IMG/VR virus record: IMGVR_UViG_2778261139_000010
DNA: 16,410 bases
Source of the DNA: a virus
Lineage: Duplodnaviria; Heunggongvirae; Uroviricota; Caudoviricetes
Reading direction: 5' to 3' (one strand)
A model generated the notes under the pieces. That model was given only the letters and a program-made list of their open reading frames with translations, did not search any database and was not told the DNA's origin. The stretch's first letter is position 1, and each line of letters opens with the position of its first letter. Positions 1 through 14,949 of this stretch are shown here, in pieces. The position numbers were made by a program, and so were the translations under genes.

Positions 1-1230
1 ATGAGCAGAGCACTTAACAAACTGAGCGATACACAGCTGAGGAAAATCAACGGCACACCCGCCCAAAAAACAGCCTTTCTTAATGACGGTGGAAACCTGA
101 GCGTCAGGCATTCAACCAGTGGCCTTTTAACCTGGTATTTCACTTACAGGGCCGGAACGGGAAGGGGGGCACCACCGGAACGCATTAAGCTGGGAAATTA
201 TCCTGATCTGAGCCTGAAATCAGCCAGGGAAAAAGCGGCCCAGTGTCGCGCATGGCTGGCAGAGGGGAAAAATCCACGTCATGAAATGAATTACACCGTA
301 CAGGAAGCGTTAAAGCCGGTAACGGTTGGCGATGCGCTCACCTACTGGCTTGAGTCGTACGCAAAGGAAAACCGTGTGGATTATGACCCACTGAAAAAGC
401 GGCTAAATAATCACGTAATACAGCACATTGGCCCTATGCCGCTGGATAAATGCGAGCTACGGCACTGGCTGGCCTGTTTTGATCGGGTGGCAAAGAAAGC
501 CCCTGTTTCCGCCGGGTTCCTGCTACAGACATGCAAGCAGGCGCTTAAGTTCTGCAGGAAGCGGCGCTATGCAATCAGCAACGTTCTTGATGATATGAGT
601 GTGGCGGACGTTGGGAAAAAACCGGATATAAGTGAGCGTGTCTTAAGTAACAAAGAACTTGGCGAATTATTGCAGGCACTGGACAAAAAAATATTTTCCC
701 CTTACTACGTCGCACTAATCCGCCTCCTGATTGTTTTCGGATGCCGGACAGTAGAACTGAGGTTATCGGAGATCGGCGAGTGGGATTTTACCGAAATGCT
801 CTGGACCGTTCCGAAGGAGCACAGCAAAACGAAGGTAGCCATATTCCGGCCCATACCGGAAGCGATACTGCCGTTCGTCACGCAGCTGGTGGAGCAGAAC
901 AGGCACACGGGCTTATTGCTGGGGGAAGTGAAACAGGAAACCAGCGTATCGCAGTACGGCAGATTGGTGCACAGGAGGCTTAAACACCCTCACTGGTCAC
1001 TGCATGACATCCGGCGCACCTTTACAACCATGCTGAACGATTTAGGCGTTGATCCTCACGTCGTGGAGCAGCTTACAGGCCACCAGATGCCAGGAATGCA
1101 ACGCGTGTACAACCATTCCCGCTATATTGATGCGAAACGCAATGCGCTTGATATGTGGGTGGAGCGGTTGGAGATACTGGCGGGAACACATGAAAACGTA
1201 ACCACGCTACCAGTAACCAGAATAAAATAA
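1..1230 (+). CDS. int: Tyrosine site-specific integrase, P4-like family
   Basis: 409 aa. N-terminus has the P4-type arm-binding pattern (LNDGGNLSV..., IKLGNYPDLSLKSAREKA). C-terminal region has HDIRRTF and a terminal Y (RVYNHSRY) consistent with the catalytic R-H-R-Y signature. Confidence 0.9.
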   Translation: MSRALNKLSDTQLRKINGTPAQKTAFLNDGGNLSVRHSTSGLLTWYFTYRAGTGRGAPPERIKLGNYPDLSLKSAREKAAQCRAWLAEGKNPRHEMNYTVQEALKPVTVGDALTYWLESYAKENRVDYDPLKKRLNNHVIQHIGPMPLDKCELRHWLACFDRVAKKAPVSAGFLLQTCKQALKFCRKRRYAISNVLDDMSVADVGKKPDISERVLSNKELGELLQALDKKIFSPYYVALIRLLIVFGCRTVELRLSEIGEWDFTEMLWTVPKEHSKTKVAIFRPIPEAILPFVTQLVEQNRHTGLLLGEVKQETSVSQYGRLVHRRLKHPHWSLHDIRRTFTTMLNDLGVDPHVVEQLTGHQMPGMQRVYNHSRYIDAKRNALDMWVERLEILAGTHENVTTLPVTRIK

Positions 1231-1247
1231 TTTTTTTCGTGTTTTTT

Positions 1248-1263
1248 CAGTATGCGCATACTG
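1248..1263. promoter_or_regulatory. Perfect 16-bp palindrome CAGTATGCGCATACTG just 3' of int, preceded by a T-rich tract
   Basis: Read directly from the sequence; function unknown (possible protein-binding site). Confidence 0.4.
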
Positions 1264-1278
1264 GATAAGTGCACAGAT

Positions 1279-1322
1279 ACAACGTGAAACAATGTGCAAC
1301 AACGTGACACAATCACGAACAA
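1279..1322 (-). promoter_or_regulatory. Array A: four phased repeats of TTGT(T/G)(T/G)C on the minus strand at about 10-bp spacing
   Basis: Plus-strand reads GAAACAA (1286), GCAACAA (1296), GACACAA (1306), GAACAAG (1316). Same motif family as the arrays at 7406..7434 and 14802..14830. Confidence 0.5.
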
Positions 1323-1419
1323 GAGGCCAAAAAGAATACAGATTTATAAGTTACTGATTTTTAATGTTCAGCTGGTTTTTTATACATTAGTGAATTACGC
1401 GTTAAAGCGTGCGAAAAAA

Positions 1420-1450
1420 GGCATAAAACAAGATTTTATGCCTTTGTATT
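1420..1450. terminator. Hairpin GGCATAAAA-caaga-TTTTATGCC flanked by A-run upstream and T-rich tract downstream; possible bidirectional intrinsic terminator
   Basis: 9-bp perfect stem, 5-nt loop, followed by TTTGTATT on the plus strand and by CTTTTTT on the minus strand. Confidence 0.45.
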
Positions 1451-1604
1451 AACATGAATTTAAATGATTTTATCCTGATTATTCCTCTTTCTGTAAACCA
1501 TGCGACACCAACATTTGCCAACTCTGAATCATCCTGACACAATCAGACACATCCCAACGCAATAGAACACGAAATAACTCTTTAAGAAACGAAAGGGGGC
1601 AATA

Positions 1605-12343: not shown

Positions 12344-13988
12344 GTACGCAGAAGACGTAAAAACGGGCAAAATTCCGGCCTGTAAACGGCTGAAACAGGC
12401 CGTTAAACGGTACTTTTCGGACCTTGAAAGCCCCCTTTACACGTTCGATCGTGAGGTTGTGGAGCGGTTTATTGCCTTTTCCAGGGTGTGCCCGCACGTA
12501 AAAGGGCCGATGCGTGGCAGACCCATTGAGCTGGAGCCGTGGCAGCAGTTCGCCTTTGCGTGCATCCTCGGCTTTAAGGTTAAGGCCACCGGACGGCGCA
12601 AATACACGAGCGCCTTTATCGAAGTGCCGCGCAAAAATGCGAAATCCACGACCGCCGCGATTCTGGCTAACTGGTTTCTGATTATGGAGAACGGGCAGCA
12701 GGATATTTACACCGCAGCGGTGAGCCGTGACCAGGCGCGGATCGTTTTTGATGATGCGCGTCAGATGTGCCTTTTATCCCGACCGTTACGCAGGCGGGTG
12801 AATATTCAGGCCCACAAGGTGATGCACCCGAAAAGCAACAGCCTGTTAAAGCCGCTGGCAGCAAAAGCGGCAACCATCGAGGGCACAAACCCAAGCCTTT
12901 CCATCGTGGACGAATACCACCTACACCCCGATAACGGCGTTTATTCCGCGCTTGAGCTGGGGATGGGCGCACGTCCCGAAGGGCTGTTATTTGCCATTAC
13001 CACATCGGGCAGTAACGTCGTTTCAGCCTGTAAGCAGCACTATGATTATTGCTGCCAGATCCTGGACGGCGAAGAGGTCAACGATTCAATTTTTGTACTG
13101 ATTTACGAACTGGACGACGAAAACGAGGTTGATGATCCGGCGATGTGGATAAAGGCTAACCCTAACATCGATGTTTCCGTGGTTCGTGAAAAACTGGCCT
13201 CAACCATCCAGAAAGCGCGGGGTATTCCGTCGCAATGGGTGGAGATGATGACAAAGCGATTTAATATCTGGTGCCAGGGGGCTACCCCGTGGATGGGTAA
13301 CGGCGCATGGGCTGAGTGTGCCGGAACGTTCACGGAGGAAGATTTACACGGGCAGGAGTGTTACGCGGGGCTGGACTTATCATCAACCAGCGATATTTCC
13401 AGCGTGTGCTATGCCTTTCCGGTCGGTAAAAATATCATGCTGGTTTCCCGTCATTATCTGCCGGAGTTCCAGCTACAGAACCCCGCCAATAAAAACCGCG
13501 CTGTCTATCGCCAGTGGGCTAAAGCGGGCTGGATACGCACAACGCCAGGTGACTGCATTGATTACGACCGGATCAGAGATGACATCATGCAGGATGCGGA
13601 GAAATTTAATATCAGGCTGGTGGGCTTTGATACGTGGAACGCCACGCATCTCAGGACGCAATTACAGGGGGCAGGCTTTGAGGTGGAGCCGTTCCCGCAA
13701 ACCTACCTCAGATTCAGTCCGGCGGCGAAATCGTTCGAAGTTTTTGTTAACCGCAGGGTGATTGTGCATCGTGGCGATCCGGTGTTGTCCTGGTCGATGA
13801 GTAACGTCGTGATGCAGAGTGACGCGAACGCCAATATCAAGCCGAACAAGAAAAAATCACCGAACAAGATAGACCCGAGCGTGGCGGCGCTGATGGCGTT
13901 TGGTACATTCCAGGCAGAGCATGAGGATTTTGCTTTTGATATAAGCGACAGCCACCGCCAGAAACTGGAAGAATTTAGCGGGGTGTAA
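12327..13988 (+). CDS. Terminase large subunit
   Basis: 553 aa; TTG start with AAGAGG SD; size and position consistent with a large terminase (ATPase plus nuclease). Confidence 0.85.
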   Translation: MTAWNKYAEDVKTGKIPACKRLKQAVKRYFSDLESPLYTFDREVVERFIAFSRVCPHVKGPMRGRPIELEPWQQFAFACILGFKVKATGRRKYTSAFIEVPRKNAKSTTAAILANWFLIMENGQQDIYTAAVSRDQARIVFDDARQMCLLSRPLRRRVNIQAHKVMHPKSNSLLKPLAAKAATIEGTNPSLSIVDEYHLHPDNGVYSALELGMGARPEGLLFAITTSGSNVVSACKQHYDYCCQILDGEEVNDSIFVLIYELDDENEVDDPAMWIKANPNIDVSVVREKLASTIQKARGIPSQWVEMMTKRFNIWCQGATPWMGNGAWAECAGTFTEEDLHGQECYAGLDLSSTSDISSVCYAFPVGKNIMLVSRHYLPEFQLQNPANKNRAVYRQWAKAGWIRTTPGDCIDYDRIRDDIMQDAEKFNIRLVGFDTWNATHLRTQLQGAGFEVEPFPQTYLRFSPAAKSFEVFVNRRVIVHRGDPVLSWSMSNVVMQSDANANIKPNKKKSPNKIDPSVAALMAFGTFQAEHEDFAFDISDSHRQKLEEFSGV

Positions 13989-14001
13989 TGAGGTCAGCAG
14001 C

Positions 14002-14283
14002 ATGACAGAAGCCGAAATACTGCGATTAATCCGCCGCGTCTCTGGAATCAGCCAGCAGGCTGACGAACAGACCACGCAGCCGGACAGCGTGACAGCCGAA
14101 AATTATGCGCGTGTTGTTGCTGAGGTGATGCGCCGTGATGGTATCCAGCTTAATGATGCGGATATGCGCGACATACGGATCCGCGTTCTGGAAATGCTGG
14201 CCTACAATCGCCGCGTTGAACTGTATCGGGAGAAGGAGAAAATCCCGTACCACTGGAAGAAGCCGGAGCGGTTACGGCGGTAA
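14002..14283 (+). CDS. Hypothetical protein, last gene of the late operon
   Basis: 93 aa; GAGG SD; no family recognised. Confidence 0.5.
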   Translation: MTEAEILRLIRRVSGISQQADEQTTQPDSVTAENYARVVAEVMRRDGIQLNDADMRDIRIRVLEMLAYNRRVELYREKEKIPYHWKKPERLRR

Positions 14284-14484
14284 CTTGTTGATTAAAAGGC
14301 GGCTCAATTCTGAGCTGGGTAGCTGACGGCGGTAACTGTTTTATATTCCCGATAGCGCAAAAATGCGCGGTCGGGCAGAATGACCACCACCTCAATCGTG
14401 ACGGAGAGTGACAACCAGTGACACACCGTGACAAAAAGACGGTTTAACCGTTCATTAAAAATCGACGTGATTTTGTGCTTTCCG

Positions 14485-14510
14485 GATGACGTGGCCAACG
14501 TCATTTTTTA
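14485..14510 (+). terminator. Intrinsic terminator closing the late operon
   Basis: ATGACG-tggccaa-CGTCAT followed by TTTTTTA. Confidence 0.55.
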
Positions 14511-14801
14511 GCGAAAAATTCTGATTAAGGTCACTGGCTGAATGGTCATAATGACCACGCAGACCATCGAGGCAACCATAGCGATCATCGTTACGGTTGG
14601 AGCTTTTCCGCCATTGGTGGAAAAGGTGCACATCTGGATCATCATTACGGTGATCAAGGGTATGTAAAACCCACCAGCCTGATTAAAGGTTAACCGGAAA
14701 AAAAATCCGGTAGCCCCGTTATGGGGATCCCCATATCGACATTAACGCCCCTCATGAATTGGTGCGCTTCCCCCTGGAAAGATTACCCGCCTGTATATAT
14801 C

Positions 14802-14830
14802 TTGTGTCTATTTGTTCCACGTTGTTTCAT
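14802..14830 (+). promoter_or_regulatory. Array C: phased TTGTGTC / TTGTTCC / TTGTTTC repeats (14802, 14812, 14823) near the right end
   Basis: Contains TTGTTCCACGTTGTT, identical to 7417..7431. Confidence 0.5.
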
Positions 14831-14949
14831 ACAGTGCACCGAACGGTGTAGTTAATGGTGTAGTCAATTTGCGATTTTTGGCACTTTTTCAATGATAATT
14901 GTTTAATTAAATCAATGGCTTGACCTGGTGTAGTGATAAAAGGACATAT

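Follow-up and report, generated by a model that had tools for sequence, protein, structure and literature searches.

Background

The closest described relative of the element studied here is EcCIEDL933 of E. coli O157:H7 EDL933, the prototype cf-PICI, for which helper-dependent induction, small island-encoded capsids and a transfer needing only the tails of the helper have been shown experimentally (10.1101/2022.09.08.507074, 10.1101/2025.02.11.637232). Its capsid has T=4 geometry and is 47.5 nm across (10.1101/2025.02.11.637232). AlpA is the master activator of the Gram-negative PICI cycle, and is needed for both the induction and the transfer of EcCIEDL933 (10.1101/2022.09.08.507074). Two other members of the family, EcCIGN02175 and KpCIDSM30104, have adaptor and connector proteins with only 35-63% identity to their EcCIEDL933 counterparts and accept other tails (HK022) (10.1101/2025.02.11.637232). 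Mutation of gene 1792 severely reduces transfer of the prototype, and cohesive ends have been reported in the literature for cf-PICI DNA. By joining their own DNA-filled heads to the tails of unrelated phages, cf-PICIs carry DNA between strains and species.

Identity and gene content of the island

The window analysed here is a stretch of 16,410 nucleotides, and there is little doubt from its sequence that positions 1-14951 are an intact integrated cf-PICI of the EcCIEDL933 lineage, located at the 3' end of phoQ. The island is an already known E. coli satellite type and a close allele of EcCIEDL933, not a new one. Its features are summarized in Table 1.

The criteria for a cf-PICI were taken from the Methods of He et al. 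2025 (10.1101/2025.02.11.637232), from PMC10085698 and from the SatelliteFinder cfPICI model. They call for a size of about 10-18 kb, an integrase at one end, a regulation module (AlpA in Proteobacteria), a replication module with a primase or replicase and an 8-gene packaging module, without lysis genes or a tail module. From Table 1, the integrase stands at the left end, AlpA represents the regulation module, and the AAA_25 helicase with its iterons represents replication. All 8 packaging genes score above the Pfam gathering scores and are full length relative to EDL933. Altogether the 11 cf-PICI core components were found by Pfam, NCBIfam and PHROGs, intact and in the order of the prototype. 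The late genes form one co-directional block of capsid, S78 protease, portal, head-closure, gp6-like adaptor, HNH, the 60-aa ORF, TerS and TerL. Pfam and PHROGs gave no match to tail, baseplate, fibre, holin or endolysin families for any ORF.

These results bear out the first-pass annotation, which had proposed a cf-PICI-like architecture with an int-alpA-rep/ori front end, head genes and HNH-TerS-TerL genes but without tail or lysis genes; each gene class that it named exceeds its Pfam gathering score, and NCBIfam and PHROGs agree. The comparison with published cf-PICI genomes that it suggested gave a near-match to the prototype: both islands lie at the same attB (roxA|phoQ, core GGACATATTT), the late modules are 97.5% identical over 6.9 kb of DNA, and the capsid protein shares 383 of its 385 residues with the EcCIEDL933-type structure PDB 9gyi. 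Inactivating frameshifts in the head or terminase genes, named there as a sign of decay, are absent, and every late ORF is full length when compared with EDL933. Some values had to be revised. For the capsid gene the start is 7647 instead of 7599, and for the head-closure gene it is 10626 instead of 10584, according to the RefSeq annotation and the comparison with PDB 9gyi. On the collinear relative L008 the distance between the attL and attR cores is about 15.1 kb, which replaces the earlier figure of about 14.8 kb. The difference comes from the attL arm, which falls outside the window, about 180 bp to the left of base 1; 14.95 kb of the island is inside.

Table 1. Features of the island in window coordinates, with the profile matches, identities or sequence properties noted for each
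Position	Strand	Feature	Evidence or remark
1-1230	+	P4-type tyrosine integrase, 409 aa	Pfam Arm-DNA-bind_3 7.8e-18, Phage_integrase 4.7e-17
1279-1322	-	10-bp-phased TTGTTnCACG-like repeats, int-alpA spacer	Repeat family D6, inverted repeats I1/I2
1605-1793	+	alpA	Pfam Phage_AlpA 5e-18
2070-3251	-	Variable accessory region after alpA	Two tandem cassettes
2331-2510, 3072-3251	-	YlcI/YnfO-family genes, 59 aa each	NCBIfam YlcI_YnfO_N 3.8e-17
2070-2273, 2787-3014	-	Small 'MTN...' ORFs, one after each YlcI/YnfO gene	
3444-3641	+	Icd-like gene	NCBIfam phage_ICD_like 5.8e-18
3592-3846, 3836-4075, 4041-4289, 4291-4524	+	Four small ORFs	PHROG families of unknown function
4530-4829	+	DUF4222 protein	Pfam DUF4222 2e-23
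4826-6223	+	RepA-like AAA_25 helicase, 465 aa	Pfam AAA_25 7.2e-44; phrog_2850 full length; helicase/primase PHROGs
6218-6434	.	Putative replication origin	GTGAG/AAAGTGAG iterons (family D2) both sides of AT-rich core, right after rep
6408-6677	+	Small ORF	
6674-7084	+	SSB	Pfam SSB 9.1e-16
7095-7343	+	PerC-family regulator	Pfam PerC 3.2e-35
7366-7431	+	Terminator-like hairpin (7366-7383), then TTGTTC array (7404-7431)	Upstream of late operon
7647-8804	+	HK97-fold major capsid, N-terminal delta domain, 385 aa	Pfam Phage_capsid (PF05065) 1.9e-61; TIGR01554 4e-88
8844-9416	+	Prohead serine protease (S78)	Pfam Peptidase_S78 2.8e-47; 96.8% identical to EDL933
9418-10629	+	Portal	Pfam Phage_portal 8.5e-91; 99.5% identical to EDL933
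10626-10964	+	Head-closure (head completion), 112 aa	Phage_HCP (PF05521) 1.7e-23; phrog_25 Hc1; 96.4% identical to EDL933
10961-11257	+	gp6-like head-tail adaptor, 98 aa	Phage_connect_1 8.4e-12; phrog_40 Ad1; 100% identical to EDL933
11257-11697	+	HNH endonuclease, packaging cofactor	Pfam HNH 1.8e-08; 99.3% identical to EDL933
11681-11863	+	60-aa ORF, homologue of EcCIEDL933 gene 1792	100% identical to L005 42158-42340; phrog_3173
11864-11986	.	Putative cos region	G-run and C-run at about 11878-11925, just before terS
11987-12343	+	TerS, P27 family	Terminase_4 1.3e-23; TIGR01558; 100% identical to EDL933
12327-13988	+	TerL, ATPase and nuclease domains, 553 aa	TerL_nuclease 2.7e-50, TerL_ATPase 1.3e-25; 98.2% identical to EDL933
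14002-14283	+	Last late-operon ORF, 93 aa	phrog_1561 8.8e-55; 92.5% identical to EDL933
14284-14941	.	Non-coding right arm	TTGTTC repeat 14809-14830; three GGTGTAGTnA copies, 14845-14866 and 14927-14936
14942-14951	.	attR core GGACATATTT	Overlaps phoQ stop codon; compared with empty K-12 site and attL of L001, L005, L008

The early part of the island is more variable. The accessory cassettes also match phrog_949 and contain a direct repeat (D1) of 125 nt at 82%, and the region 3444-4524 is mosaic relative to the islands L001, L002 and L005. None of the 10 accessory ORFs scanned for defence genes passed PADLOC; a single match, to Cas8g on a 67-aa ORF (E=6e-4), is at chance level. The group of small ORF, SSB and PerC genes (6408-7343) includes a match to phrog_1231. 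At 6218-6434, where the GC content falls to 0.436, the layout common to PICIs suggests a replication origin. In the late operon, the number 1792 was assigned to the 60-aa homologue because the capsid gene is 1786. The spacer upstream of terS is nearly invariant even in a lineage of islands with a late module of about 81% identity, and the exact cos position is predicted to fall within it. The 93-aa ORF that ends the operon also occurs alone in many other genomes.

Integration site and distribution

The insertion point of the island is the stop codon of phoQ. The att core is present at both ends in the relatives, while the corresponding K-12 site is empty and reads GGGCATATTT; the boundaries and the core are identical across many genomes. 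The window itself begins at int, with the attL arm and the int promoter to its left. The left flank was read from relatives. L008, which is collinear with the window at 99.67% over 16,224 bp, has roxA-pepT-potA-potB directly left of int, and roxA, pepT and potA form the left flank in four other relatives at the site as well. In all five, the left neighbour is roxA and not the tail or lysis genes that the first-pass annotation had named as evidence against its reading. The integrase is 95.4% identical to that of the EDL933 island. In the right arm, the three GGTGTAGTnA copies are exact and all fall within 92 bp, and they are candidate arm-type sites for Int. The same repeat pairs occur in the attL arm of L001, L005 and L008, and the arm repeat of L009 changes along with its integrase.

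The late module was found in 411 of 5426 complete E. coli genomes (about 8%), and also with another integrase at another attB (L011), as expected of a mobile element.

Regulatory sequences

AlpA of the window island is identical to that of EDL933 at 61 of 62 residues, and the DNA from int through alpA is 91% identical (an alpA promoter variant). The phased repeats between int and alpA are candidate sites for a regulator of the AlpA or Xis type. They belong to a pattern of four intergenic places, namely both att arms, the int-alpA spacer and the late-operon promoter region, which is seen in 3 of the 4 islands examined. L001 and L005 keep the cluster at the same four places, and L002 keeps three of them and has one weaker copy between int and alpA. 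The TTGTTC array before the capsid gene is identical in L001, L002, L005 and L009. The arm repeat is a separate one, with GGTGTAGTTAAT present twice in the window island and TGTGTGGTCAGT twice in islands with another integrase. We tentatively suggest that the TTGTTC(nnnG) arrays might all be bound by a single regulator of the island, for which AlpA in a role like that of P4 Vis is the most likely candidate, and that GGTGTAGTTAAT/TGTGTGGTCAGT would be a separate Int arm-type site. Such a single binder would couple excision, autoregulation and late-gene activation. No description of this layout was found in the cf-PICI literature searched.

Alternative explanations

The copy might look intact and be no longer mobilisable, through module swaps, missing small genes or the lack of a compatible helper. 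Its replication protein is not that of the prototype, and it is without the prototype's 75-aa gene before the capsid gene; a gene of about 100 aa before ssb, found in L001 and L002, is missing too, although EcCIEDL933 is also without it. However, the architecture without both small genes recurs in several independent assemblies (L006, L008 and L010, 99.4-99.8% identical over shared segments), and He et al. (10.1101/2025.02.11.637232) place variable cargo sites on either side of the packaging operon. The exact RepA protein occurs in 282 blocks of the collection, and L011 combines the same architecture with a different integrase and attB, which implies recent mobility. We consider a loss of mobility improbable.

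A decayed HK97-like prophage with its tail and lysis genes deleted would also leave an integrase at one end and late proteins of phage families (HK97 capsid, portal, TerL), but this origin is very improbable. The genes show no frameshifts or truncations, and many genomes share the boundaries and att core. The order capsid-protease-portal-closure-adaptor-HNH-TerS-TerL is unlike that of phages, and the front end, alpA and then rep, is of the PICI type. Only 4 phage records share DNA with the island, none with a coverage above 13%, and the prototype is an experimentally proven satellite. There is practically no chance that the island is a classical PICI or a P4-like satellite, which would remodel capsids made by the helper without making its own. 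The int-alpA-rep front end and P4-type integrase are common to classical E. coli PICIs and P4. However, the genes for capsid, protease, portal, adaptor, head-closure protein and TerL are all present in the island itself; of these components, portal and adaptor, like the connector, are forbidden for classical PICIs in SatelliteFinder. Sid, Psu, Delta and Rpp-type proteins had no match in Pfam or PHROGs.

Proposed life cycle

For the cf-PICI reading, we infer the life cycle of the window copy from the prototype because its late proteins are 92-100% identical to those of that experimentally tested island. A helper phage (HK106 or HK446 for the prototype) would turn on alpA, and the island would excise through its P4-type integrase and replicate, probably from the iteron origin by the RepA-like helicase, a step predicted from the window sequence. 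The delta-domain capsid protein would be processed by the S78 protease, and small HK97-fold heads of T=4 geometry with a capacity of about 15 kb would form from it on the portal. HNH, TerS and TerL would then cut and package the island DNA with cohesive ends, presumably at a cos site within the conserved stretch that precedes terS. Once filled, the tail-less heads would carry the gp6-like adaptor and the head-closure protein as their cap, and would finally become infective by joining ready-made siphovirus tails from a phage. HK106-type tails should fit the window copy, because its adaptor has 100% and its head-closure protein 96% identity to the EcCIEDL933 proteins. The earlier suggestion that the head-tail adaptors set which helper tails can be used agrees with the published adaptor/connector swap between cf-PICIs (10.1101/2025.02.11.637232).

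Comparison with known systems

The window copy shares attB, att core and gene order with EcCIEDL933 (10.1101/2022.09.08.507074, 10.1101/2025.02.11.637232). Int, AlpA and SSB are 95%, 98% and 97% identical, and the range is 98-100% for capsid, portal, HNH, TerS, TerL, adaptor and gene 1792. The early module, on the other hand, does not correspond. The prototype replication protein is a 710-aa DUF927 protein, and only the first 122 aa align with the 465-aa RepA-like protein, at 68%. Positions 1830-4500 form a mosaic, and the window copy has other accessory genes downstream of alpA (two YlcI/YnfO cassettes) and a shorter right arm, with 2 GGCG(C)GGTAAC repeats compared to 3-4 in EcCIEDL933. As one further allele of the prototype, the window copy brings no new principle. 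Nevertheless, it is a natural variant that combines the prototype tail interface with another replication module and with cargo sites that are empty, and is therefore useful to separate the determinants of induction from those of tail choice.

By their published description, EcCIGN02175 and KpCIDSM30104 are alike in family architecture and tail piracy (10.1101/2025.02.11.637232). Classical Gram-negative PICIs (EcCICFT073, EcCIED1a) share the int-alpA-rep front end, AlpA-dependent induction and a PerC-family gene, but they have no capsid, portal, adaptor or TerL genes and redirect helper packaging. A P4-like satellite was rejected as an assignment: no Sid, Psu, Delta or alpha primase families were matched, the island has its own capsid genes, and only the integrase type and AlpA are common. 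A complete or decayed HK97-like prophage was also rejected, with no tail, lysis or immunity genes or remnants within the att boundaries and no late pseudogenes.

HK97 and HK97-like siphoviruses, including the helper HK106, share the HK97-fold capsid with delta domain, the S78 protease, HNH-TerS-TerL cos packaging and the gp6-like adaptor. In contrast to these phages, the island is devoid of tail, lysis and lysogeny-control genes, its head genes are in a different order, its head would be T=4 (EcCIEDL933 type) instead of T=7, and its DNA has hardly any similarity to phage records. In the helper-embedded PICIs (PMC10111431), a related island with the late module of about 81% identity lies inside a prophage terL in strain TUM1881, whereas the window copy is chromosomal at phoQ, outside any prophage.

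Gene content and class of the island

The first-pass annotation proposed that the stretch carries a capsid-forming phage-inducible chromosomal island (cf-PICI), which makes its own heads and borrows tails. This is supported, with a gene set, an insertion site and a late module (the block with the head and packaging genes) as in the prototype EcCIEDL933 of E. coli EDL933, and the element is already known. The gene classes named for it are all present above the Pfam gathering score, and NCBIfam and PHROGs concur with Pfam on the HK97 capsid and portal, head closure Hc1, adaptor Ad1 and P27 TerS. 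The start sites of the capsid gene (7647) and the head-closure gene (10626) were revised from the RefSeq annotation and the solved structure. Other small ORFs belong to several PHROG families of unknown function, and none of the remaining small ORFs matched a tail, baseplate, fibre, holin or endolysin family. PADLOC, run on 10 small accessory ORFs, gave no credible defence gene, the one weak match being to Cas8g (E=6e-4) in a 67-aa ORF. The SatelliteFinder model of cf-PICIs has 11 core components and forbids tails and holins (PMC10085698); all the sequence criteria of a cf-PICI hold for the window, which is "Type A" with 11/11 components.

Features of the island (window coordinates unless a locus is named)
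Feature	Coordinates	Basis or remark
Integrase (int)	1-1230	Pfam Arm-DNA-bind_3 + Phage_integrase
TTGTTnCACG-like cluster	1279-1322 (-)	
alpA	1605-1793	Pfam
Icd-like gene	3444-3641	small ORF
DUF4222 protein	4530-4829	Pfam
RepA-like helicase, AAA_25	4826-6223	Pfam
SSB	6674-7084	Pfam
PerC-family protein	7095-7343	Pfam
TTGTTnCACG-like cluster	7404-7431 (+)	
Major capsid	7647-8804	Pfam Phage_capsid, E=1.9e-61
S78 prohead protease	8844-9416	Pfam
Portal	9418-10629	Pfam
Head completion protein	starts 10626	Pfam
gp6-like connector	10961-11257	Pfam
HNH	11257-11697	Pfam
60-aa ORF	11681-11863	between HNH and terS
TerS, Terminase_4	11987-12343	Pfam
TerL, ATPase + nuclease domains	12327-13988	Pfam
Last late-operon ORF, 93 aa	14002-14283	phrog_1561
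TTGTTnCACG-like cluster	14809-14830 (+)	
att core	14942-14951	GGACATATTT; overlaps phoQ stop codon; compared with K-12 empty site
TTGTTnCACG-like attL-arm cluster	L005 30240-30260	EDL933 locus, off window
TTGTTnCACG-like attL-arm cluster	L001 5912-5932	relative island, off window

A two-gene cassette is present in two tandem copies at 2070-3251 (-), each encoding a 59-aa YlcI/YnfO-family protein and then a small ORF beginning MTN; they have a 125-nt repeat in common at 82% identity, and a spurious 522-aa plus-strand ORF (1888-3456) spans them. Many E. coli genomes that otherwise lack the late module carry the phrog_1561 ORF alone (4%-coverage matches), and it is probably a gene common to other prophages.

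Insertion site and boundaries

The window is of E. coli origin. Its phoQ ORF (14950-16410, minus strand) has 99.8% DNA identity to E. coli JNE120393, where it is annotated as phoQ. Positions 1-14949 hold mostly plus-strand genes, and the first of them, the integrase gene, has its ATG exactly at the left edge. A tRNA scan of the window found 0 tRNA genes, and so the insertion is not tRNA-targeted. In the empty site of K-12, roxA and phoQ are 75 bp apart and GGGCATATTT is found at the phoQ stop. In relatives, the identical 10 bases of the att core adjoin roxA, about 180 bp ahead of the int ATG. The two cores therefore delimit an island that begins about 180 bp beyond the left edge of the window and ends at 14951, a size of about 15.1 kb rather than the 14.8 kb estimated at first. 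The prediction that no tail or lysis genes would be found left of int was checked in relatives, the window's own left flank being off view. In a collinear relative (L008, GCA_018091605.1), which matches the first 16,224 bases at 99.67% identity, roxA, pepT, potA and potB lie directly left of int, and the same flank is found in JNE120393, O157:H7 strain 2571, EDL933 and two further assemblies. An Rfam scan of the window at E<=1 returned two sub-threshold chance matches only, and a promoter scan of the window gave fewer sites than shuffles.

The right arm is otherwise non-coding. It includes a small hydrophobic ORF at 14508-14657 (-) (...APTVTMIAMVASMVCVVIMTI...), and within 14508-14667 a plus-strand ORF overlaps it and a 15-bp palindrome, TGGTCATAATGACCA, is also found. 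In EDL933 this stretch is conserved and its minus-frame changes replace one hydrophobic residue by another, but the start codon is not kept. When considered as a holin or type I toxin, the minus-strand ORF had no family match; the stretch may either encode a peptide or bind a protein. Downstream of the late genes, short (C)GGCGGTAAC repeats are present in 2 copies (14261-14344), compared with 3-4 longer units, each with a hairpin, in EDL933 (L005 44760-45200); they occupy the variable position that follows the packaging operon.

Repeats in the att arms and intergenic spacers

Repeats resembling TTGTTnCACG, phased at 10 bp, form four intergenic clusters located in both att arms, in the int-alpA spacer and upstream of the late operon. 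All four are kept in L001 and L005, while another relative island, L002 (O157:H7 strain 2571), has three and a single weaker copy in the int-alpA spacer. In L009, an island with another integrase and another AlpA, TTGTTC arrays are still found in the two att arms and ahead of the capsid gene. The 10-mer TTGTTNCACG is not above chance in the window (6 counts against 5.3 expected), and so the case for the repeats rests on clustering, phasing and conservation among the other islands compared, which is weakest in L002. They may be AlpA/Xis-like sites.

The tandem repeat GGTGTAGTTAAT/GGTGTAGTCAAT (14845-14866), with a third copy next to the core (14927-14936), is confined to the att arms, with three exact matches within 92 bp. 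In the other-integrase islands, TGTGTGGTCAGT occurs twice at the corresponding places (L009 5830-5850 and 20350-20380). The arm repeat thus changes with the integrase, a co-variation expected for arm-type sites, and we regard the GGTGTAGT repeats as candidate Int arm-type sites.

Distribution and alternative explanations

Among 5426 complete E. coli genomes, the late module is covered to at least 80% in 411, mostly at 95-99% identity, and the whole window in 43. Four phage records share DNA with the window, none at more than 13% coverage. In L009 and L011 (GCA_026135465.1 and GCA_033678045.1), RepA and the late module are the same as in the window, but the integrase (406 aa) and AlpA (74 aa) differ, and the island is inserted between rcnR and thiM. 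Their att core, AGAAATACCCGTAT, is located in what we take, from reading the sequence, to be the thiamine riboswitch leader of thiM. E. coli TUM1881 has a related island (L012, NZ_CP128979.1, 1166-18044) with about 81% identity in the late module and a single annotated connector gene; it is inserted within terL of an HK97-like prophage and splits that gene in two. Such an arrangement has been published as a "helper-embedded PICI" (PMC10111431).

A single reservation stands, namely that the window copy might not be mobilisable. The reduced layout was seen again in independent assemblies and, in L011, with a different integrase at another attB, which argues that the layout is mobile and not a dead end. 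That the element is a decayed prophage is unlikely, given its intact ORFs and fixed boundaries, a head-gene order that is not that of phages, a front end of the PICI type, and a prototype shown by experiment to be a satellite. Frameshifts in head or terminase genes, set beforehand as a sign of decay, were absent, and the late ORFs are stop-free and align end to end with those of EDL933. The island encodes a capsid, portal, adaptor and TerL of its own, which rules out a classical PICI or a P4-like satellite.

Proposed life cycle

We account for the cf-PICI cycle here by identity to the prototype, for which the following steps were shown. A helper phage would induce the island in an AlpA-dependent manner, and the integrase would excise it, with replication next. 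T=4 heads of the HK97 fold would then assemble, their capsid protein matured by proteolysis, and cohesive-end DNA would be packaged by a process dependent on HNH, TerS and TerL. The tail-less heads would be released and join free siphovirus tails. From the sequence alone, a putative origin at 6218-6434 consists of GTGAG iterons around an AT-rich core, and a putative cos lies in the 123 bp between the 60-aa ORF and terS (11864-11986). This spacer holds a segment with a G-run and a C-run, and as a whole the spacer hardly varies in a lineage with only about 81% identity in the late module. Adaptor and connector swaps alter tail specificity, and EcCIEDL933 takes HK106 tails, not HK022 tails (10.1101/2025.02.11.637232). 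With an adaptor identical to that of the prototype and a head-closure protein differing at 4 of 112 residues, the window copy is predicted to use HK106-type tails.

Comparison with EcCIEDL933

As described by Alqurainy et al., EcCIEDL933 is 15.4 kb long in EDL933 and encodes int, alpA, rep, capsid, protease, portal, head-tail connectors, HNH, TerS and TerL, with no tail genes; it is induced by HK106 and HK446 via alpA (10.1101/2022.09.08.507074). Mutation of any packaging gene abolishes transfer of the island and leaves the phage unaffected, and transfer is kept with helper capsid mutants and lost with helper tail mutants (10.1101/2022.09.08.507074). In the EDL933 chromosome it occupies the roxA-phoQ site that the island of the window also uses. 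L002 was considered as EcCIEDL933 and ruled out, its early region being found in only two O157:H7 genomes.

At the DNA level, the late module (7365-14292) has 97.5% identity to that of the prototype. The protein identities are 99.5% for capsid, 96.8% for protease, 99.5% for portal, 96.4% for head closure, 100% for adaptor, 99.3% for HNH, 100% for TerS, 98.2% for TerL and 92.5% for the last ORF. The 60-aa ORF has a 100% identical counterpart between HNH and terS of EDL933; as the authors number the capsid gene "1786", the ORF corresponds to their gene "1792", mutation of which severely reduced transfer (10.1101/2022.09.08.507074). The window capsid shares 383 of 385 residues with PDB 9gyi ("Major head protein"), and the EcCIEDL933 capsid structure, solved at 3.24 Å, is T=4 with a diameter of 47.5 nm (He et al., 10.1101/2025.02.11.637232). 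The nearest solved capsids after 9gyi come from the Rhodobacter capsulatus gene transfer agent and from a relative (6tb9, 6tba, E ~1e-46).

The early half is a mosaic when compared with the prototype. A 465-aa RepA-like helicase is found here and a 710-aa DUF927 protein in EDL933, of which the first 122 residues alone align (68%). After alpA, the two YlcI/YnfO cassettes stand against a 247-aa hypothetical gene in EDL933. Upstream of capsid (~7322-7365), the window is without a 75-aa gene that is present in EDL933 and L002 (WP_001132080.1) and has a 74-aa counterpart in L001 (13326-13655). A gene of about 100 aa between the 6408-6677 ORF and ssb is present in L001 (12292-12600) and L002, but not in the window (~6677) or EDL933. 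cf-PICIs vary in the gene that follows alpA and on either side of the packaging operon (He et al., 10.1101/2025.02.11.637232), and the differences between the window and the prototype are therefore of the expected kind.
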